A stretch of DNA of 64,000 nt from a virus (IMGVR_UViG_3300004255_000002:26530-90529), one strand, 5' to 3'. Positions 7,777-47,098 are shown, numbered from the stretch's first letter. The notes: generated by a model from the sequence alone, not told the origin. Program-made: numbers and translations.

Positions 7777-10700
7777 GTGGCAGTGTCAGCAGAATTACAG
7801 ATACTAATTACGGCAGTTAATAATGCCAAAGCCCAAATCACCAGTCTGGTTAAAGACCTATCTGGTGTGTCTGCGGGTGTCGATAAGATTAACGGTAAGG
7901 ACATTGGTACCAAACAGAATACCCAGCTAAAGGAGCTCGGCGCTAATGCTAAGAGCGCGACTGATAGCATGGGTATGTTTGCACTTAAAGCCGCCGCCGC
8001 GGTGGTCGCTATTCGTGGTCTTATTGCCATCCCAGAGACGTACAAGCAGATTGACGCTAGACTACGTATCGCCGCTGACAGTCAAGCGGACTACAATCGC
8101 TCTCAAGAAGAAACTACCCGTATTGCATTGGCCTCACGCTCATCACTAGAGGGTGTAGCAGGTCTTTACACCAAGCTTAGGGTCAATGCACGGTTAGCCT
8201 CAGACGACGCGGCACGCCTCACAGAAATCATTGGCAAGGCTACTCAGCTAGACGGTGGCGGTGCAGGTGCAGATGCGGCTATCTTCCAGTTACAACAAGG
8301 CTTGTCCTCAGGCACATTACGTGGTGAGGAATTAAACTCTGTCTTAGAACAAACACCATCACTAGCTAAAGCGTTAGCAGACGGCTTAGGTGTGTCTGTG
8401 GGCGGTTTACGTCAGATTGCGCAAGACGGTAAGCTTACGGCTGAGGTGGTGCGAGACTCCCTATTCAAGATGCAGGGCGACGTAGAGAGCAAGTTCAACC
8501 AACTACCAGTAACGACAGGTCAGGCGTTTGAGAACATCAAGACCAAGGCCATCCTAGCTATTGGTAGTATCGACCAGCAACTAGGTATCACCTCTACTAT
8601 TGCTAAAGGTATCCAAGCAGTTGCGGATAACTTAGAGCCTATCATTAAGGCTGGTGCAATCGTAGGCGCAATTTTTGTTGGGTTAAAGGTACAGGCACTC
8701 ATCGCGTCCTCAGGTATGCTCACGCTCGCAGGGGCTACAGGTGCCTTAGGTGTGGTCATGGCGGCAGTGTTCTCACCTGTTACTCTGGTTATAGGCGCAT
8801 TCGCGGGTCTGATTAAGTTCTTCACAGACGGGATAAACGCATCCAATGCACTCACAGAGACGGTGGCAGAAGAGGTTACTGTGTGGGAGGTGTTTGGTGC
8901 GGTCTTGGGTATCGTGGGTGATTCTATCTCTAACGTGATAGGCTTCATAGGGGACCTTACAGGGCTCATGCCTGTGGGTGGAAAAGCTATAGATGAGTTT
9001 GGTAAGCAAAACGAAAAGACTTGGACAGAATCAGGCGGGTTCGCTCGTAACTTCTTTAACGGTATCGTCGGGTTCCTGCCTATGCTGGGTCGTGCATTAG
9101 CGGCTACAGCGGTTCTAATCAAAGAGGGCATATCACAACTATTCTCAAGCATCGCGGATGAGGCTAGGGCATTAGGCAAAGACCTACAGAACGTACTCAA
9201 GGGCGACCTCACATTCAGCAACCTAATTAAGTCAGGCGCTGATAGCAAGAAGGCGTTCTCTAACCTAGGTAAGCAGTACGCCGAGAACATGAAGGATGCA
9301 CTAGATGCAGGCCTAGGCACGGACTATGCGGCTGATATATTCAAGTCAATCAATAGTCGTATCAATGAGGAACGTAAAAAGAAACCAATCGTAGCGGATA
9401 AGCCTGCCTCACTATTACCTGAGCAGACTAAAAAGGGCTCAGCGGCTAGTGCATTTGGTTTAGGTCAAGATGAAATCAATGCGCTTAAGACCGTGCTTGA
9501 TGGCATCACCAACGACATTAAATCTAGCCTAGCCCAAGCGTCTAAAATCTACGATGAGTCCTATAAAGACAACCTCATTAGTATCAATGAGTTCTACATC
9601 GCACGTCAGGGCATTATCGACAAGCAAGCCGATACTGAGATAGAGGCAGAGCGTACATTGCTGTCTGCACTCCAAGCAGAGCGTGCTAAGGTCGCTAACA
9701 CGGCTGTGGGTGATAAAGAGCAAGAGAAGAAACGTGCCAAGCTCGCGGACATAGATAACGAGATATTCAAAATAGGGCAGAAAGTCCTACAGATAGACAA
9801 AGAGCGTGGTTTCGCTACCTCAGATATTGCCCGTAATCGGGAACGAGATAGCAAAGCGTTACGTGAACAACTTGCAGACATAAGATTAGCCAATGATTTG
9901 GTTGCAGGGGTAGCTACCTCTGAACAACGTGCCGATGCAATCCGTTTACGTAACGCCGAGCTATTACGCAAGGCTCAGGAAAACGAGTCAGAGAACAAAG
10001 GCGCAACTGCGGCAGTAGAGCGCAAGATAGAGATTGAGATTAATCAGGAGACTCTTGACCGCACTGAGACTGAGTTTAATGCAGTCATGGCTCGCTTGCG
10101 TGCTAGTCAAGAAACAGTCGATATCCAACGCAAGAACGGTATCCTAACCGAGACTCAAGCGCGTGAGCAATTAGTCATCCTAAACCGCCAAGCGGCAGAT
10201 GACTTGGATGTACTCATTCCTAAATTGGAAGAAGCGGCTAAGGCATTAGGCCCTGAGGCTCAAGCAAGGGTAGCAGAGTGGCGTAATCAAATAGCGCAGA
10301 CTCGCTTAGTGGTGGACGAAACCGCTGTGCGTATCAACGGCGCATTCAAGGATGGAGCAAGCACTCTATTCAAAGACCTAATCACTGGCGCTAAGAATGC
10401 TAAAGAGGCTGTGTTGGACTTCGCTAATACCTTCCTTAAGGCGGTAGCAGATGTAGCGTCCCAGAAGCTTACAGATAGCATCTTTGGTGGTGTGGCAGGA
10501 GGCGGGGGTGGTATCGGTGGTATATTATCTGGCCTATTCGGGGATAAACCGAAAGAGAAGGGCTCTAATCCAGCCGACCCATTGTACGTGCAGGACGCAA
10601 GCAAGGCGACAGAGAAACTAGGCGACGTAGTTAATCCAACTGAGGGCGTGCTTGATACCTTCTTTACTAAAGTGAAGACAGGCTTCAATAGCTTAGTAGA

Positions 10701-39251: not shown

Positions 39252-39311
39252 TGCAGTTAATTGCAATTAATTGCATAAAAACATTGACTAATTATATCAA
39301 TATGATATTAT
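39252..39311 (+). promoter_or_regulatory. Tandem overlapping operators plus phage promoter
   Basis: TGCAGTTAATTGCAATTAATTGCA 39252-39275. TTGACT 39284-16 bp-TATTAT. Confidence 0.8.
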
Positions 39312-39357: not shown

Positions 39358-40272
39358 ATGATGAGCAAGGCAGACGAGACAGTAGAAACCAAAGCACCAG
39401 TTAAGAAATTGCTTAAAACAAAACCAAAGGCTAAAGAAGAAGTAGTTGAGCAAGCAACTGAGGCGGCAGAAGTTGCAGACGTGAAAGCGGACACAACAGA
39501 AGCCCAATCGTTGGTAGAAGCTAAACCAGCAGTAGTAAAAGAAACAGACCTTATCGTGCTAGCAGTAGCCGAAGTGGATAAGTTGAAAGAAGACAAGGCC
39601 TTTAAACTAGTGCCAGAGTTGTTGAACTCAATCGACCACGATTACTTCAAACTAGGCGGCGTGTTGGCATTAATCCAAACTAATGGCTGGTACCTAGACC
39701 GCGGCTTTGAAAACTTCCGTCAATACGTGGAAGCTGATGGCGGTATGCTGTACCGTAAAGCAATGTACCTAATCAGCATCTACAATGGCCTATCAGCAAG
39801 TGGTGTGCCATGGGATAAAGTTAAAGGCCTAGGCTGGACAATGCTGAAAGAGCTGGCAACCATCTTGACACCAGAAAACGTGGACGAGTGGGTAGCGGCT
39901 GTGACAGGTATGACTGTGTTACAAGCACAAGAATACATCAAGGTTAAATCGGCTGGCTTATCACAAGGCGACAGTGCTGATGAAGCGGCTAAGGTAGAAG
40001 TTAAAAAGACCTCTACAATGTCATTCAAGGTGCATGAAGACCAGAAAGATACAATCCGTGAAGCGTTGGACAAAGCTAAGCATGAATCGGGTACTGAGTA
40101 CGATGCAGTGGCGTTAGAAAACATCTGCTTGGACTTCTTATCGGGTGATTCTAAGCTTAAGAAAATGCCGACCTTACAAGAGCTGATGACTGGTATGAAT
40201 GTGCATGATGTGATTGAAGTACTGGATAAAGTATTTCCTGATTGCAATTTTGAAATACAAGTGCCAGAATAA
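39358..40272 (+). CDS. Conserved phage protein, probably DNA-binding
   Basis: FKLGGVL-x-x-I...WY...GF-x-x-F-x-x-YVE...RKAMYLI motif (DUF3102-like) and acidic N-terminal tail. Confidence 0.6.
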   Translation: MMSKADETVETKAPVKKLLKTKPKAKEEVVEQATEAAEVADVKADTTEAQSLVEAKPAVVKETDLIVLAVAEVDKLKEDKAFKLVPELLNSIDHDYFKLGGVLALIQTNGWYLDRGFENFRQYVEADGGMLYRKAMYLISIYNGLSASGVPWDKVKGLGWTMLKELATILTPENVDEWVAAVTGMTVLQAQEYIKVKSAGLSQGDSADEAAKVEVKKTSTMSFKVHEDQKDTIREALDKAKHESGTEYDAVALENICLDFLSGDSKLKKMPTLQELMTGMNVHDVIEVLDKVFPDCNFEIQVPE

Positions 40273-40543: not shown

Positions 40544-40571
40544 TTGACTAATTATATCAATATGCTATAAT
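40544..40571 (+). promoter_or_regulatory. sigma70-type phage promoter driving the modification operon
   Basis: TTGACT-16 bp-TATAAT with extended TG. Confidence 0.85.
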
Positions 40572-40595
40572 GGTTTATCTTATGGGAGAACATTA

Positions 40596-41489
40596 ATGAT
40601 TTTAAAAGTACCAAGTAGCACAGACAAATCCAAATTCTACTTTGTGGACGTTGTTCACAGCACATGCACCTGCCCTGCGTTTCTAAAAGCCCACCGTGAG
40701 TGCAAGCACATCAAGTATGTGCATGACCTAAATGAAGCTGGCGACCTGAGCTTAGAGAAGGTTAGCCGTGAAGAATACGATGCGCTGTTTGGTGCGGTGT
40801 CTCACGATAAAGCCCGATTCAATATGAAGACCTCAGACGGTCAAGCGATGTACGATTTAATGGAAGAGTTCTCGCTCACTAGATTGTCCAAGAACTTCAT
40901 CATGCGAGACTTCCTACATACCAACTACAACTCAGTAGCGGGTGTTTGCAACTACCCAGAAAAGCCAGAGGTGGTAATCAAAGCAGGTAAGGCACTGTGC
41001 GAGAACATCTTAGAGCCTATCATTGCCAAGTGGGGCAAGATATTCATTACCTTTGGTTATCAGTCGCGTACTGGCCTAGAGATGGCTGATAGCAAGATGA
41101 AAGACAAGCCAAAAGGTTCCAGCCCTCATCAATGGGATAGAGGCACCTACGGCACTAAAGTCTATTGCCGCGTGGACATCTTGCCTGCATGCGTACAAGA
41201 CGGCGAAGTTACCAAGAAAGAATTCAGAGATTGGATGTTTCACAACCTAGACCTTGACCTCATCATGAGTTGGGGTAAGTCCAATGTATTCTGTCTAACG
41301 TATTCTGAGTTTAAGCCAAGACGTGTCGCCCTAGAATGGGTGCAGTCTGGCACAGGTGAGAATGGCACCAATCGGGTAACTTACTACGGTGAGGCGTATT
41401 GGGGCTACAAGTTTAATAAACTACCAAAGGAACAGCGGCCTAAGTTTTACCCTAGTCACTCAGACGGTAAAATGTGGCACACTTACTAA
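40596..41489 (+). CDS. SWIM Zn finger fused to a peptidase M15-like domain
   Basis: CTCPAF...ECKH SWIM. RLSKNF-x-x-x-DFL...LCE-x-x-LEP...ITFGY-x-S...S-x-HQWD M15-like domain. Confidence 0.65.
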   Translation: MILKVPSSTDKSKFYFVDVVHSTCTCPAFLKAHRECKHIKYVHDLNEAGDLSLEKVSREEYDALFGAVSHDKARFNMKTSDGQAMYDLMEEFSLTRLSKNFIMRDFLHTNYNSVAGVCNYPEKPEVVIKAGKALCENILEPIIAKWGKIFITFGYQSRTGLEMADSKMKDKPKGSSPHQWDRGTYGTKVYCRVDILPACVQDGEVTKKEFRDWMFHNLDLDLIMSWGKSNVFCLTYSEFKPRRVALEWVQSGTGENGTNRVTYYGEAYWGYKFNKLPKEQRPKFYPSHSDGKMWHTY

Positions 41490-41908
41490 TGAAACCTACC
41501 ACAGACCCTAAGGATATTGAGTATGCTATCTCACTCGTTAAAATGCACCCTGATTGTTTCTCTGGTGTATCTAAGTCTGAGTTATCTACAGGCTTTCTAT
41601 TTGTCGATAGGGTGCGCGGCGTCATGCTACACATCCGTCCCGAAACCAGAACAGGCACCTATGGTGTTAAATTCCCGTTCGGGTCTAACCAGATTACGCA
41701 CATTGCCTCAGCCCAAAAAGGGGTGGCGTCAGAATACCTCAAGGAATACATATCGTGGTCGGGTGGGGCACCGATATGGCTATTCGTAAAGACAGACAAT
41801 AAACGGGCGATTGCCTTCTATGAGCGCTTCGGCTTCGAGAAGAAGAATATCGTTAAATTCCCTACCTTCTCATCATTTATCATGGTACGACCAAGGACAC
41901 CAGTATGA
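41474..41908 (+). CDS. GNAT family acetyltransferase
   Basis: THIA...KGVA-x-x-x-L (motif A) and IWLFVKTDNKRAIAFYERFGF (motif B). Confidence 0.85.
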   Translation: MAHLLMKPTTDPKDIEYAISLVKMHPDCFSGVSKSELSTGFLFVDRVRGVMLHIRPETRTGTYGVKFPFGSNQITHIASAQKGVASEYLKEYISWSGGAPIWLFVKTDNKRAIAFYERFGFEKKNIVKFPTFSSFIMVRPRTPV

Positions 41909-43116
41909 AAATAAACGCTAAGTGGGATGCCAAGAATCCCCTGATGTTTGAGAACATCGACACCGTAACCACTATCAAATCTATGCGCAGTTTAGGCGGC
42001 GGGGTCAGCATCCCAGAGGAAGGCGTAGAGACCAGAGTAGTTGGTGGTCGTACAAAGTGCTACTTCCACATTAGTCCACCGGGTATGCAACCGTTGTACT
42101 ACGCGATTGATGGCACTAAAATCTACATCAACTCGTACAAGCTGGCACTACGCAAGCAATGCCCTAAGGCCAAGATTGAGCAAGCCATGGATGGGGTGGT
42201 GTACGTGTTTGATGGCGTCATGCGTAAGTTCAAAGGCCAGACCATTAATCTACCTGCGATTGCTTCTGTAGAAGAACGCACCCCTAGAAAGTTCCTAGAC
42301 GTATTACTACGTGCCACGGAAGACATCTACACTAAGATGGGTAGACAAGAGGTAATCACGTCTATCTCTGGCGGCACAGATGGTATCTTGACTGCCTACT
42401 TACTAAAGGCAATCGGAGCTAAGCAACGATGTGTATGCGTAGGCAGGACTGAGGAAGACTTCGACCCACACCATGCTTTAATCTATGCGAATCACTTGGG
42501 GCTGAACTACGAGTTCATCCCTCTACCGCACACATCCAATGATGATAAGTTGTCCATGCTTCTACTAGAGACATTGCAGAGCATTGAACAGACAGACTTC
42601 TCTAACGTGCTGATGGGTATGTGTAACGTGCTGATACGTCGCTATGGTGTGAACCATGGTATCTACCACCACTTTAATGCGGACTTTGCAGACGTGGTGC
42701 TAGGCAACGATATGCTGACCGTGGGTAGTTATAACAAAGGAAGACGCGAGTCAGGGCAGGAAGCCACAGCAGAGTCATGGGCACAGTATCGCCTAGATAG
42801 CGGACTGCATACCCTGCCAACCAACCTACAAATCGCTAAGGTGTTTGAGCGTGATAGCGGTTTAGTTCGTCAAGTGTTCTACCACCCAGATGTGGTAAAC
42901 TTCCTGATGTCAAGTCCATTGGAGTGGGTGCCAGCAAGCAAGAATAAGGTCTTATATAAAGAGGTCCTTAAGCTAGTCGGCTCAGATATCCCGTGGAGTT
43001 TCGATAAGAAAATAGGGTTCTACACAGGTGCAGGGATAGGCAAGATACGCCTAGAAAACCCTGTACTATCTGATGAGAACATCCGTAAAGTATTCAGTCA
43101 AATCAAAGGAACTTAA
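41905..43116 (+). CDS. Asparagine synthetase-like ATP-dependent amide ligase (no glutaminase Cys)
   Basis: G-x-x-PLYY Ntn remnant, PP-loop SISGGTDG, FNADFAD-x-V-x-G, K-x-LYK...PW...KK-x-GF. Confidence 0.75.
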   Translation: MKINAKWDAKNPLMFENIDTVTTIKSMRSLGGGVSIPEEGVETRVVGGRTKCYFHISPPGMQPLYYAIDGTKIYINSYKLALRKQCPKAKIEQAMDGVVYVFDGVMRKFKGQTINLPAIASVEERTPRKFLDVLLRATEDIYTKMGRQEVITSISGGTDGILTAYLLKAIGAKQRCVCVGRTEEDFDPHHALIYANHLGLNYEFIPLPHTSNDDKLSMLLLETLQSIEQTDFSNVLMGMCNVLIRRYGVNHGIYHHFNADFADVVLGNDMLTVGSYNKGRRESGQEATAESWAQYRLDSGLHTLPTNLQIAKVFERDSGLVRQVFYHPDVVNFLMSSPLEWVPASKNKVLYKEVLKLVGSDIPWSFDKKIGFYTGAGIGKIRLENPVLSDENIRKVFSQIKGT

Positions 43117-43770
43117 ATGAGCGAACCAGTAGCAGTACCTGAATTAGAAATGAAGTTAATTGCACTAGATGCAATCCTCCCATACCAAAACAACCCACGC
43201 CAGAATGAAGATGCTGTGCAGGGTGTGGCAGATAGTATCAAGGCATTCGGATTCAATGTACCTATCGTGGTAGACAGCGATATGGTGGTGATTACAGGCC
43301 ATACTCGCCTCAAAGCCGCACACCTTCTGAACCTAACCCAAGCACCTGTTATCATTGCTACCCACCTCACGCCTGAGCAAGTAGCGGCCTATCGTATCGC
43401 GGATAACCGCGTGGCAGAGAATGCTAAGTGGGACAACGAAAAGCTAAGTGAAGAGTTGCAAATCTTGCAATCAATGGGTATTGACCTGATTGAGACAGGT
43501 TTCAGCATGGAAGAAATCTCATGCTTGCTGGACAACGTATCGGCTGATTGTTTGGAAGACTTAAGTGCCCAAGCAGTATGCGGGGACGTGAACCACTTGG
43601 TTATCAACAAGAACAAAGAGGCTGGCTTTACCTTGGGTGACTTCCGCTTCTTGGTGCCGTTAGAGCAGTACAACAAATGGCGTATGGCGATGCTAGAAAC
43701 CCATGGCTCAGCTAACGATATGATTGTCTGGGTTAAAGAACAAATCGGCATCAATAAGTTCGGAGCATAA
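43117..43770 (+). CDS. ParB/Srx N-terminal domain protein
   Basis: PYQNNPR...SIKAFGF-x-x-PIVVD...ITGHTRL-x-AA...YRIADNR. Confidence 0.88.
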   Translation: MSEPVAVPELEMKLIALDAILPYQNNPRQNEDAVQGVADSIKAFGFNVPIVVDSDMVVITGHTRLKAAHLLNLTQAPVIIATHLTPEQVAAYRIADNRVAENAKWDNEKLSEELQILQSMGIDLIETGFSMEEISCLLDNVSADCLEDLSAQAVCGDVNHLVINKNKEAGFTLGDFRFLVPLEQYNKWRMAMLETHGSANDMIVWVKEQIGINKFGA

Positions 43771-43771
43771 G

Positions 43772-45310
43772 ATGAAAGAAGCCATACGACTAATGCCTAT
43801 TGACCTCGTAAAAGGGGCAGAGTACAACCCGCGGGTACGGGTGCCAGAGCGGTTTGCTAAGCTCATAGACTCATTAAAACACCTAGGCTTTGTTCTACCC
43901 TTATACGTAAACAAAGACGGCATGCTCTTATCAGGCCACCAGCGTACAGCGGCGGCAAAAGAGTTAGGCTACAAGTTTGTACCTGTAGTCGATGTGGATA
44001 TCTCTGAGGCTGATGAGAAAGGCCTTAACGTGTTCTTTAATCGGGCAACGAATGACTTTGAGGGCATAGAGACCAGCAAGGATGTGTTCGACGGATTCTC
44101 AGCAATGGAAGCCTCTATCGACTTTGATAACCTTGAAGTGATTGAGCCAGACACACGCTACCCATGCATGGAATCACAAACCATGCTGGTAGAGACACTG
44201 TTCAAGACTATCCAAGCACCGTCAGACGCATCTATTACCTCAACCACCACGCTAGCGACTAAAGGTATCCGTATGCCTGTGGTTATCTCTGAATCGGGTA
44301 AAGTCCTGAACGGGGTACCGCGGGTATATGCCTACCAATTCGCTGGGCACAAAGAGTGTGAGGTAGTCACAGTACCTGACCATATGGCGGAGTACGCTAC
44401 ATGGGTGTTAAACGGTATTTCGATGGACTTCAACATCCAAGAAGCCTATGCGGATGAGTTACGCTACAACGCATACCGTCGTTTAGCGGTACAGGCGCAG
44501 ATGGTGGGCTTTTCTCGCACTTACTCATGGTTTCCTATGGGTAGGACAATTGGCGCGACTAGAGGCTCAGCACACAAGGATGAGGATGTGAACACAGACT
44601 TAGGTTTGATGCCGCACCTAGACCCAGAAGTGAAGCGTAAGTACAAAGAGGTCTACGAGCCTAACTTCATCGACTTTGGTTGTGGTACAGGCCATGACGC
44701 CGAGCTATTGGCTAAGGGTGGCTGGAATGTCCTAAGCTTTGAGCCGTATCGATATGGCGATGACAAGAAAATCTGTTCAGAAGTATCACGGGCTAAGAAC
44801 CTAGAGTTCCTGACCCAGTTGGAAGGACTACTCAAAACCAATGAGCCACGCTCTATCCTCAGCTCATACGTATTGAACTCTATCCCACACCACAAAGACC
44901 GTATGGCCTACCTAGCGATTATGTCGGCAATGGCGGCACCGCGGACTAAGGTGTATATCGGTACCCAACACGTATCAGTACGTAAGGGCAGTATGCGCGA
45001 TAAGATTACTGCCAACATGGAACCCAACATGACGATAGGAGATACCGTGTCTTCATTCAAGGTGCAGAAGTACTTCTACAATGAAGAACTAGAGTCCATG
45101 CTCAAGGTGTTCTGGGTGCGTGTGAAGGTCGTGGAGAAGGACAACACCATTTATGCTCTGTGTGAATATCCAAAGCGTCCTAGCGCCAACCTATTGAAGG
45201 AAGCACTAGAGCTGGAGTTCAACTTGCCATACGCAGATGGAACCACTATGAACCTACACGAGTATGCCAAGCAGATTTTCGGGGCGTACCATAAACTAGA
45301 TTTATCTTAA
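43772..45310 (+). CDS. ParB (tandem) domain fused to a SAM-dependent methyltransferase
   Basis: YNPR...SGHQR ParB plus a second degenerate ParB (PVVI...LNG-x-x-R). C-terminal IDFGCG-x-G-x-D and SSYVLNSIP motifs resemble the phosphorothioation-associated MTase family. Confidence 0.8.
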   Translation: MKEAIRLMPIDLVKGAEYNPRVRVPERFAKLIDSLKHLGFVLPLYVNKDGMLLSGHQRTAAAKELGYKFVPVVDVDISEADEKGLNVFFNRATNDFEGIETSKDVFDGFSAMEASIDFDNLEVIEPDTRYPCMESQTMLVETLFKTIQAPSDASITSTTTLATKGIRMPVVISESGKVLNGVPRVYAYQFAGHKECEVVTVPDHMAEYATWVLNGISMDFNIQEAYADELRYNAYRRLAVQAQMVGFSRTYSWFPMGRTIGATRGSAHKDEDVNTDLGLMPHLDPEVKRKYKEVYEPNFIDFGCGTGHDAELLAKGGWNVLSFEPYRYGDDKKICSEVSRAKNLEFLTQLEGLLKTNEPRSILSSYVLNSIPHHKDRMAYLAIMSAMAAPRTKVYIGTQHVSVRKGSMRDKITANMEPNMTIGDTVSSFKVQKYFYNEELESMLKVFWVRVKVVEKDNTIYALCEYPKRPSANLLKEALELEFNLPYADGTTMNLHEYAKQIFGAYHKLDLS

Positions 45311-45320
45311 GGAGAAGCAC

Positions 45321-45533
45321 ATGGGATTAGGTATTGAATTAGCAAGACAGGATAACCCTGAGCATGCAGAGGCGATTGACAACCACAAAGACCAGCTACT
45401 TATCGTCTTCCTTAAACGCTTAGGCGGCAAGGTACAGATACCAGTAGCAGAGGTGGATGATACAGGCGGCAGTCTCATGATGATGCAGGTAGTGAATGGT
45501 GTGTTCACCTTTGGGATAGAGAAGAAGCAGTAA
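45321..45533 (+). CDS. Hypothetical protein
   Basis: AGGAG RBS, 70 aa. Confidence 0.6.
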   Translation: MGLGIELARQDNPEHAEAIDNHKDQLLIVFLKRLGGKVQIPVAEVDDTGGSLMMMQVVNGVFTFGIEKKQ

Positions 45534-45778
45534 TGTCTCTGTGTAAGTATCTTGATGGAGAGAACATCAAACCATCCACTAATAGCGAGGCCAAGGCTTT
45601 GATAGGTACAAAGGTCAAGTATCTGTGTACCAAAGACATTGATACGTCGGGCAGAGGCTACTTCTTTCCTCGCTATGGCACCATTGTGGAAGTAGAGCGC
45701 AGGAACATTGCCATGGATGTGGCTGGTAACTTCGTGGTGTGGATGCCAGACCTCATAGAAATGATAAAGGTAGAGTAG
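45533..45778 (+). CDS. Hypothetical protein
   Basis: Coupled ORF, 81 aa. Confidence 0.6.
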   Translation: MSLCKYLDGENIKPSTNSEAKALIGTKVKYLCTKDIDTSGRGYFFPRYGTIVEVERRNIAMDVAGNFVVWMPDLIEMIKVE

Positions 45779-45985
45779 ATGAACACCCTAATCAAATACG
45801 GGGCGCTAGAGGTGTACTACGACGTGCGCAGGAATGGGTATATCGTAGTAGAGGAGCACCCTAATGGCCTCACCGTCAAAGACCGAAGCAACCTAGTGTC
45901 TGAAACTATAGCAAACACCTTGCGAGACCTGTGGCAAGAAGAGATAGCAACGGGGCTGATACCTAGCTTCGACATACCTGACTAA
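45779..45985 (+). CDS. Hypothetical protein
   Basis: Adjacent ORF, 68 aa. Confidence 0.55.
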   Translation: MNTLIKYGALEVYYDVRRNGYIVVEEHPNGLTVKDRSNLVSETIANTLRDLWQEEIATGLIPSFDIPD

Positions 45986-45995
45986 CCATCCAAAC

Positions 45996-46045
45996 AGCCT
46001 CACCTAAGACGTGGGGCTTTTTAACGCCCAGTGCAATCAATTGCA
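45996..46045 (+). terminator. Rho-independent terminator followed by an operator
   Basis: AGCCTCAC-CTAAGAC-GTGGGGCT-TTTT, then TGCAATCAATTGCA 46032-46045. Confidence 0.75.
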
Positions 46046-46249: not shown

Positions 46250-47098
46250 ATGATAAAAACGACTATTTTACCCAAATCAACCCTCCCTTTAGACCATACA
46301 AAACAAGGACTTACGGGCAAGTCAGACCTAGTATTACCGACTGGTATTGCTAAGGTATCTGTGAAGAAAGTGGGAGATAACCATGCTAATACACCAGTGG
46401 AACCTGCACCCGCAAAACCTAAGCGCAAGGTACATCCTAAGCAGTTAGAGGGAAGACCGCATAAGAAGACAGCGGCAGAAAAGTTGGCAGAGAAGCAAGC
46501 CAAGGCCAAACTAAAAGATGCCCCAGAGAAAACTGACTTCACCCTAGAGGCAGTGGAAGGCATACTCAAGGAAGACGGCTTAGAGGAAGTGCCTGACCGC
46601 GGGTATAACGTGAAGGCTACCGCAGAGGAGAAAGAGTTCCGCCGCAAGCAAATCATGCGACTCATGTTGCGAGGCGTCCCACGTTCGACCATAGGGCAAT
46701 ACCTCAAACTACCGATGCCGACCCTGAACCTTGAGATACGTGAGATTAACCGTATTACCAAGCAGGAGATGCTACAGCTTGATTACCCGCTATTCGTGGG
46801 CATGGCGGTCAACTTCTATGATGAAGCCCGTAACATTGCCTTACGTCTAGCGACAGATACTAATGAGAAGTCCAACCTAGTGAAGATGCATGCGCTGAAT
46901 GTAGCGATATCAGCAGAGAACAATAAGCATAAGTATCTACAGATGGTTGGCCTATACAAATCGACATCCCCAATTACACTGAACAATGCTGAGAACCAAA
47001 CTAGTGACGCGGACGACTTCATTGACCTATTACAGCAGGCGAGTAGGAACACAGTAGAAGGCGTGTACGAACAAGTAGGGCTAGGAGACAATACGTGA
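46250..47098 (+). CDS. Putative terminase small subunit
   Basis: HTH segment RRKQIMRLMLRGVPRSTIGQYL, overlaps the large-subunit start. Confidence 0.65.
   Translation: MIKTTILPKSTLPLDHTKQGLTGKSDLVLPTGIAKVSVKKVGDNHANTPVEPAPAKPKRKVHPKQLEGRPHKKTAAEKLAEKQAKAKLKDAPEKTDFTLEAVEGILKEDGLEEVPDRGYNVKATAEEKEFRRKQIMRLMLRGVPRSTIGQYLKLPMPTLNLEIREINRITKQEMLQLDYPLFVGMAVNFYDEARNIALRLATDTNEKSNLVKMHALNVAISAENNKHKYLQMVGLYKSTSPITLNNAENQTSDADDFIDLLQQASRNTVEGVYEQVGLGDNT

Follow-up and report, generated by a model that had tools for sequence, protein, structure and literature searches.

In a 64,000-nt stretch of phage DNA, hereafter the window (bases 26530-90529 of the 90.5 kb IMG/VR phage record IMGVR_UViG_3300004255_000002, 99% complete), we found an operon and a nearby CmoA-family gene which, on the sequence evidence, are moderately likely to specify a post-replicative DNA hypermodification system based on carboxy-S-adenosylmethionine (carboxy-SAM, Cx-SAM). 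In the proposed order, a CmoA-family protein, a fusion of two ParB domains with a class I methyltransferase (ParB-MT), an AsnB-fold amide ligase and a GNAT acyltransferase would act one after another. The first demonstration of Cx-SAM-dependent DNA modification dates from December 2025 and concerns one enzyme family, the C5-cytosine methylase CmoX (Yang et al., Nat Commun 2025, PMC12783734); in Synechococcus phage S-B43, the CmoA-CmoX-CmoY system yields 5-carboxymethylcytosine and its glycine amide (PMC12783734). A preliminary description of the window had mentioned such a cyanophage pathway of CmoA, a C5-carboxymethyltransferase and an amide ligase, and this pathway is real. Through full-text literature searches, we found no publication on a ParB-methyltransferase/CmoA system. 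Coordinates are those of the window unless another record is named, and the operon with its signals and the genes that follow it up to cmoA are on the + strand.

Linkage of ParB-MT with CmoA and exchange with CmoX

The family profile of ParB-MT (phrog_5475) revealed at least 384 relatives in IMG/VR, and the counts given here come from the best 80 loci. A CmoA-family open reading frame (ORF) was located directly downstream, on the same strand, in 75 of these 80 loci; two of the other five hold CmoA elsewhere in the record, and the remainder are short fragments. The trio of ParB, ParB-MT and CmoA was also found in the cultured phages Aeromonas HJ05, Pseudomonas SM1/PaMx31 (Samunavirus) and Gordonia Evaa, where it adjoins an annotated terminase or a gene that tblastn shows to be a terL homologue, and TIGR00740 (CmoA) was the top family for every ParB-MT partner methyltransferase tested in cultured phages.

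The reciprocal sample covered 80 loci whose CmoA is of the same subfamily as the window protein. Of these, 61 contained an SPPC-type C5 methylase (CmoX) and 13 contained ParB-MT, with none containing both; the remaining six were truncated, or had ParB-MT beyond the fetched range. Three ParB-MT loci also hold a C5 methylase, which is an ordinary non-SPPC enzyme 3 kb away.

Through the sequence comparison, we found that one ParB-MT locus (L117) and one CmoX locus (L112) contain CmoA proteins that are 99% identical. The nucleotide identity (95.7%, L117:2531-3162 against L112:1579-2210) is confined to cmoA and the contigs are otherwise unrelated, which looks like a recent cassette exchange. ParB-MT and CmoX partner labels also interleave on a quick CmoA tree (two rows of which are mislabelled C5). 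In Moraxella phage Mcat8 the gene order is ParB, C5 methylase, CmoA, a small ORF (terS by position) and an annotated terminase, and the C5 methylase has the CmoX signature, namely SPPC and the Arg of GRMV (criteria from PMC12783734). The order ParB, ParB-MT, CmoA and terS in locus L008 occupies the same slots as this CmoX cassette. Because of the co-occurrence, the mutual exclusivity, the same slot order and the shared 99% identical CmoA, we infer that ParB-MT takes the place of CmoX without being its orthologue and uses the same cofactor.

The ParB-MT fusion protein

ParB-MT (43772..45310, 512 aa, phrog_5475) was identified by domain matches and its structural model, which has a predicted local distance difference test score (pLDDT) of 93.6; the ATG at 43772 was preferred as start to the TTG at 43724. 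It is composed of ParB_N, another ParB-like domain that is degenerate (hhalign 97.6%, E 4e-12) and Methyltransf_23 (E 4.7e-10), and the family profile matches Myxococcus ParB 7bnk (E 3.9e-10). The methyltransferase domain contains the motifs DFGCG and SSYVLNSIP. Its description as a non-C5 enzyme with these two motifs was borne out: a PC[QH] or PPC motif was found in the methyltransferase domain of none of 78 family members, and the sole PC dipeptide of the window protein (YPCM) belongs to the inter-domain linker. No Cys is conserved in the methyltransferase domain across the 78 members, and a C5 mechanism was rejected on this ground; PF00145 (C5 methylase) was found nowhere in the 90.5 kb genome. 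Judged by these sequence features (no PF00145, no SPPC motif, no conserved Cys), ParB-MT is not a CmoX. Since a catalytic Cys is missing, a heteroatom (N or O) is the expected acceptor, and not the pyrimidine C5.

The amino-methyltransferase motif IV, (D/N/S)PP(Y/F/W) of the DPPY type, was also absent from all 78 members. Following strand 4, the family has instead (L/M)NS(V/I)P, in which N369, S370 and P372 are conserved, and conserved basic residues were found at R377, K430, K433, R231, R236 and R237. The fold neighbours listed for the 512-aa model (Z up to 14.3) are class I enzymes that act on small molecules or tRNA or are uncharacterised, with the tRNA enzymes METTL6 and Trm9 among them. 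The exocyclic amine (N6-A or N4-C) put forward as acceptor in the preliminary description gained no support, in view of the missing DPPY-type motif and of fold neighbours that are small-molecule and tRNA class I enzymes; such an acceptor is possible, with no specific support. Alignment with non-nucleic-acid methyltransferases had been named there as refuting the proposal, and the neighbours indeed include such enzymes beside the tRNA ones; we did not take this result as decisive, the class I fold being a generic one.

Outside the window, the early region of the genome contains a 331-aa ORF (genome 9741-10736; L171:874-1869) with a partial match to the N6_N4 methylase family PF01555. The match covers model positions 2-61 only, at 24 bits, just below the cut-off; in six-frame translation it passes through a TAA, and the adjoining next ORF is a dUTPase_2. 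The ORF may be a truncated or unusual amino-methyltransferase.

The CmoA-family protein

The CmoA-family protein (48945..49715), a candidate carboxy-SAM synthase, is encoded 3635 nt after the ParB-MT stop, and its start overlaps the terL stop (TAATG), in agreement with the CmoA homologue 3.6 kb away and coupled to terL that had been noted before. TIGR00740 was its top family (E 1.5e-16), its closest solved relatives are the CmoA structures 4gek and 1im8, and the closest cultured relative is the CmoA of Moraxella phage Mcat8 with 48% identity. In the alignment, the SAM-contact residues of E. coli CmoA (PMC3663124) Y39, D62, G64, S66, D117, F137 and E164 are kept, whereas E stands in place of D89 and F in place of N132; the experimentally validated SpCmoA has L at the N132 position. 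The window protein carries a 36-aa N-terminal extension. CmoB-type PF08003 was not found in the 90.5 kb genome and, with the C5 methylase missing as well, the window CmoA is without both of its known partners.

Record G002 is a relative of 98 kb with terminal repeats, in which a 545-aa open frame (L088:1501-3135, - strand) has the CmoA domain at its end; its first 300 residues form a low-complexity stretch rich in Ala, Lys and Pro. A CmoA fusion protein was considered for this record and rejected, the frame being mostly of low complexity before the CmoA domain and following terL as in the window.

The AsnB-fold ligase

The ligase (41905..43116, 403 aa) was identified as an AsnB-fold ATP-dependent amide ligase, a CmoY analogue, through its PP-loop SGGTDG and its fold. 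The protein starts with MKINAKWD, without Cys2, and keeps an N-terminal nucleophile (Ntn)-like domain, so that the earlier description of an AsnB-like ligase lacking the glutaminase Cys was correct, with the complete two-domain AsnB fold. Beta-lactam synthetase and CarA also keep the N-terminal domain without glutaminase activity. The structural model (pLDDT 93.2) gave as top Foldseek matches beta-lactam synthetase (E 2e-14, TMq 0.68), E. coli AsnB (5.6e-14), human ASNS and carbapenam synthetase, and these matches span both domains over about 400 columns with template modelling (TM) scores of 0.63-0.68. The PP-loop has Gly at its last position, and S155, G156, G157 and D159 are invariant in the family. 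PF00733 was undetected in the window ligase and is on record for six relatives. QueC, TilS, NAD-synthase and GMP-synthase were rejected as identities of this protein: their weak matches cover the PP-loop only and are outweighed by the whole two-domain fold of AsnB and beta-lactam synthetase.

None of the 23 ligase family members (the window protein and 22 relatives) has Cys2 or an MCG start. Lacking the glutaminase Cys, the ligase is unlikely to take its nitrogen from glutamine, and the modelled fold indicates that it is an acyl-adenylate-forming amide ligase working without glutamine-derived ammonia.

The ligase family is small, with 23 clusters in 5.8 billion proteins, and in all of the about ten distinct contexts examined (the window, L007, L009, L010, L011/12, L090/91, L092, L093/94, HJ05 and a Burkholderia contig) ParB/ParB-MT was located within 8 kb; CmoA was present wherever the contig extended far enough. 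That a carboxylate-activating ligase is tied only to the ParB-MT module gives independent genomic support for a carboxyl-bearing ParB-MT product. With the ligase profile, CmoY-type ligases from CmoX loci reached 24-44 bits, whereas no solved AsnB-family protein exceeded 21.8 bits, which suggests that the window ligase is remotely related to the CmoY ligases. CmoY-type ligases in CmoX loci have two forms, a long one with the MCG start, hence with an active glutaminase, and a short SpCmoY-like one; by its sequence, the window ligase is a third form beside them.

The CmoX cassettes L119, L121, L126, L135, L140, L141, L161 and L164 contain AsnB-like ligases of 456-503 aa between the C5 methylase and CmoA, and those of L119, L121, L126 and L161 start with MCG(I/L)AG, that is, with an intact glutaminase nucleophile. 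The predicted product of the MCG-type ligase cassettes, 5-carbamoylmethylcytosine, was proposed and is unproven in PMC12783734.

The stand-alone ParB and a repeated palindrome

The gene between the ligase and ParB-MT encodes a stand-alone ParB-N protein (43117..43770; PF02195 28.5 bits, above the cut-off; phrog_620 1.4e-48), which we propose to act with the transferase on DNA, either as its partner or by activating it, by analogy to phage ParB proteins shown to activate a DNA-modifying dioxygenase on dsDNA (PMC13229309). Homologues of this protein, 58 of them distinct, were found directly upstream of ParB-MT almost everywhere in the fetched loci, and the window protein shares 37% identity with the ParB of the Mcat8 CmoX cassette. 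The GERRxR motif is not kept, with GHTR in the stand-alone ParB, GHQR in domain 1 and NGxxR in domain 2 of ParB-MT. It is questionable whether these proteins hydrolyse CTP as segregation ParBs do.

A 14-bp palindrome, TGCARYYAATTGCA, gave 39 strand-matches at no more than one mismatch, making about 22 sites, against 0.2 expected. The sites include 46032-46045, 47150-47163 and 39252-39275, with about 18 more, and copies were found 10 nt past the operon terminator, inside the terL start and as a tandem pair before the gene at 39358. The palindrome could be an operator or a candidate ParB loading site.

The GNAT and SWIM genes

The GNAT acyltransferase gene (41489..41908; PF00583 25.7 bits against a cut-off of 20.7; motif QKGVAS) is translationally coupled on both sides (TAATG and ATGA). 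GNAT accompanies the ligase in four of the about ten distinct contexts, always directly upstream; among the relatives, homologues hold this position in L007, L010 and L093/94 only. In L009 a Cys-rich 172-aa ORF (8128-8646), unrelated to GNAT and without Pfam match, is located between the SWIM gene and the ligase.

These genes have a nested distribution. The core, in which ParB-MT and CmoA co-occur near-universally, is found most widely, the ligase in a subset of the core loci, and GNAT in a subset of the ligase loci. Such a nested distribution is the pattern expected of successive tailoring steps.

The first gene of the operon (40596..41489) encodes a SWIM zinc-finger protein (PF04434, E 0.003) with a C-terminal LAS/Peptidase_M15_3-like domain. 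The M15_3 likeness was seen in the Atlas model only (PF08291 clusters, TM 0.80-0.83 by the match), and the domain assignment is a lead. In the closer relatives the SWIM gene is syntenic, with homologues located before ParB in L007-L012; one of these loci, L008, is without the ligase.

Proposed pathway and its weighing

On the basis of homology and context, the CmoA-family protein would make Cx-SAM from SAM and prephenate. ParB-MT, aided by the stand-alone ParB, would then move the carboxymethyl group to phage DNA, as suggested by the co-occurrence, the mutual exclusivity and the cassette swap. The Cys-less ligase would adenylate the carboxylate and join to it an amine other than glutamine-derived ammonia, considering its fold, its exclusive linkage and its remote CmoY homology. 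In the last and weakest step, GNAT may acylate a free amine of the appended group, and the end product would be a bulky base shielding the DNA from host nucleases. DNA is the presumed acceptor because of the positional replacement of CmoX and the ParB domains. No hydroxymethylase or other base-modification pathway was found in the window (PHROGs on 20 neighbouring genes, which have replication and recombination functions), so canonical bases are the likely substrate. An anti-restriction function of the module and its link to packaging are our inference only.

The preliminary description had joined these genes and the distant CmoA into one hypermodification system. This part is strengthened by the near-universal co-occurrence, the mutual exclusivity with CmoX, the presence of the ligase only by ParB/ParB-MT and its remote CmoY kinship; the exocyclic-amine acceptor gained no support, and the acetylation step is weak, with GNAT beside the ligase in the minority of contexts given above. 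We might further speculate that phrog_5475 is a second, unrelated family of DNA carboxymethyltransferases with its at least 384 IMG/VR homologues, alkylating a ring or exocyclic heteroatom instead of cytosine C5, that in this phage lineage the Cys-less ligase and GNAT then build a new N-acylated amide base, and that the ParBs load the enzyme, possibly at TGCARYYAATTGCA. This fuller proposal is tentative.

Several points weigh against the pathway. Among the top 50 matches of Foldseek and of VIA-align for ParB-MT there was no DNA methyltransferase, the methyltransferase domain is without the amino-methyltransferase motif, and the early region of the genome shows the partial N6_N4 methylase-like match (genome 9741-10736). 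The cmoA gene belongs to a separate transcription unit, behind the operon terminator. The window CmoA scores 60.8 bits against the TIGR00740 cut-off of 193.3; SpCmoA is also below this cut-off (115.6 bits), so the low score need not speak against the assignment. Arg199 of E. coli CmoA, which forms a salt bridge with the cofactor carboxylate (PMC3663124), aligns with a Glu in the window CmoA; Glu is also present in SpCmoA, and a conserved QRP Arg is located nine residues beyond the Arg199 position in the alignment. Most ligase-bearing relatives are without GNAT, and the SWIM/M15_3-like gene and three small ORFs at the end of the operon are left unexplained by the pathway.

ParB-MT could be an ordinary SAM-dependent DNA methyltransferase that leaves a plain methyl mark, with the CmoA-like protein and the ligase/GNAT pair unrelated to it. 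Its methyltransferase domain is a generic Methyltransf_23 class I fold, ParB-methyltransferase fusions by terminases are common in phages with many annotated as adenine methylases, and CmoB accepts SAM at a low rate (PMC4482062). However, this would leave the near-universal CmoA partner unexplained, together with the zero overlap of ParB-MT and CmoX among the 80 CmoA loci, the 99% identical CmoA common to a ParB-MT locus and a CmoX locus, and the carboxylate-activating ligase linked exclusively to the ParB-MT module; the annotated phage ParB-adenine methylases are PF01555 enzymes and match only the ParB part of ParB-MT. We regard a plain methyl mark as quite unlikely. It is also unlikely, if less strikingly so, that Cx-SAM is used on an acceptor other than DNA, such as phage or host tRNA (CmoB-like), a packaging or virion protein, or a small molecule. 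ParB-MT stands in the exact slot of the DNA enzyme CmoX (ParB - transferase - CmoA - terS - terL), contains two ParB domains of its own and follows a stand-alone ParB gene, and the CmoY-type ligases act on DNA (PMC12783734). These points are set against fold neighbours that include METTL6, Trm9 and many small-molecule methyltransferases, against the tRNA and peptide enzymes among known Cx-SAM users (PMC10491745), and against the fact that ParB/Srx-fold domains are not always DNA binders, with SbnI a weak match.

A last explanation takes the SWIM/M15_3-like protein, GNAT and ligase as a separate peptide or cell-wall set (peptidase, amidating ligase and acetyltransferase) merely sharing the promoter, which appears very improbable. 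Peptidoglycan precursors are amidated in some bacteria by enzymes of the AsnB family, the M15_3-like fold is that of a peptidase, and these three genes come first in the operon. The ligase, however, was found in no other context, with ParB/ParB-MT near in all of the about ten, and its profile detects the CmoY-type ligases of CmoX cassettes; it also lacks the glutaminase Cys that known amidotransferases need. Moreover, HJ05 has the ligase and no SWIM/M15_3-like homologue was found in the 20 kb fetched, whereas L008 has the SWIM gene without the ligase.

If the Cx-SAM pathway is true, and ParB-MT is a second, non-homologous carboxymethyltransferase, this chemistry would reach other bases or atoms, an orphan family widespread in phages, which has at least 384 homologues in IMG/VR and includes Pseudomonas Samunavirus phages, would gain a function, and site-directed labelling of DNA with a carboxyl handle would have a new enzyme at its disposal. 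The ligase and GNAT tied to the ParB-MT module predict a new multi-step hypermodified base. The cultured carriers make the idea directly testable, HJ05 with the ligase, and SM1/PaMx31 and Evaa with the core only.

Operon structure and neighbouring genes

The operon is headed by a sigma-70-type promoter with extended -10 (40544..40571, TTGACT-16-TGcTATAAT), which has 11 of 12 consensus matches and was the top-scoring site within 39.5-50.5 kb. It is closed by an intrinsic-terminator-like hairpin with a T run (45996..46022), in which the arms AGCCTCAC and GTGGGGCT (45996-46018) form an 8 bp stem with a 7-nt loop, followed by TTTT. Since the simple terminator scan needs five T, this hairpin is unlisted there and was found by reading the sequence. 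Eight genes are located between promoter and terminator, and the junctions are in order TAATG, ATGA, TAAATG, TAAgATG, a 10-nt spacer with GGAG, TAATG and TAGATG. The promoter, terminator, coupled genes and protein classes of the preliminary description were all found in place; its end coordinate, 45310, omits the last three genes of the same unit, which are small coupled ORFs of 70, 81 and 68 aa (45321..45985) between ParB-MT and the terminator. No homologues of these ORFs were found in about 170 fetched loci.

Downstream, a small-terminase-like protein (46250..47098), named by position only, is coupled to terL (GTGA); family searches gave no match to it, and its homologues were found upstream of terL in 31 other loci. 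The large terminase subunit, terL (47095..48945, phrog_2 E 1.1e-5), shares 35% identity with its counterpart in HJ05 and 32% with that in SM1. A megablast search with the operon found no match among 50,697 phage records, and single-protein queries found no related loci, but family-alignment profiles did.

Comparison with known systems

The closest known system is that of S-B43. The two have in common a CmoA homologue for the cofactor, an AsnB-type ATP-dependent ligase and an associated ParB-domain protein; the window CmoA is in the same subfamily as the CmoAs paired with SPPC-type CmoX, and in relatives of the S-B43 system such as Mcat8 the cassette is located by the packaging genes, as in the window. 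The transferase of the window is a ParB-ParB-class I Rossmann enzyme instead of a C5-cytosine methylase and, being without PF00145, SPPC and a conserved Cys, it must differ from CmoX in its acceptor atom. The window ligase, of 403 aa with a dead Ntn-like domain, differs from the 271-aa SpCmoY and from the MCG glutaminase type, a GNAT is added, and cmoA sits after terL. Compared with S-B43, what is new by sequence is a transferase outside the CmoX family, a new ligase form and the added GNAT.

CmoA and CmoB of E. coli, which act on tRNA (cmo5U34; PMC4482062, PMC3663124), likewise combine a CmoA-family synthase with a class I Rossmann transferase, and a heteroatom acceptor without Cys catalysis is predicted for the window enzyme as well. 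In contrast, the phage genome has no PF08003, and its transferase forms a fusion with two ParB domains and is encoded in linkage with packaging genes. The ParB-dependent thymine dioxygenases 5mYOX176/ParB176 (PNAS 2026, PMC13229309) also show a small phage ParB-like gene beside a post-replicative DNA-modifying enzyme, often near terminase genes, and there ParB is required for dsDNA activity (PMC13229309). That enzyme is an Fe/2-oxoglutarate dioxygenase, whereas the window enzyme has a methyltransferase fold and itself contains two ParB-like domains.

Beta-lactam synthetase, carbapenam synthetase and AsnB (PDB 1mc1, 1q15 and 1ct9) share with the window ligase the two-domain fold and the acyl-adenylate-forming PP-loop, but at 12-17% sequence identity; the N-terminal domain of the window protein is shorter (about 120 aa), and its gene sits in a phage DNA-modification cassette. 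Mom of phage Mu, a single glycyl-tRNA-dependent enzyme, makes N6-carbamoylmethyl-adenine (PMC13219725), and is thus likewise a phage route with a GNAT-fold enzyme to a carboxymethyl-derived amide on a purine amine. The products could converge if ParB-MT hit N6-A and the ligase used ammonia. In the window, however, the GNAT is optional and has an acetyl-CoA-type motif, and the route would pass through Cx-SAM and an ATP-dependent ligase.

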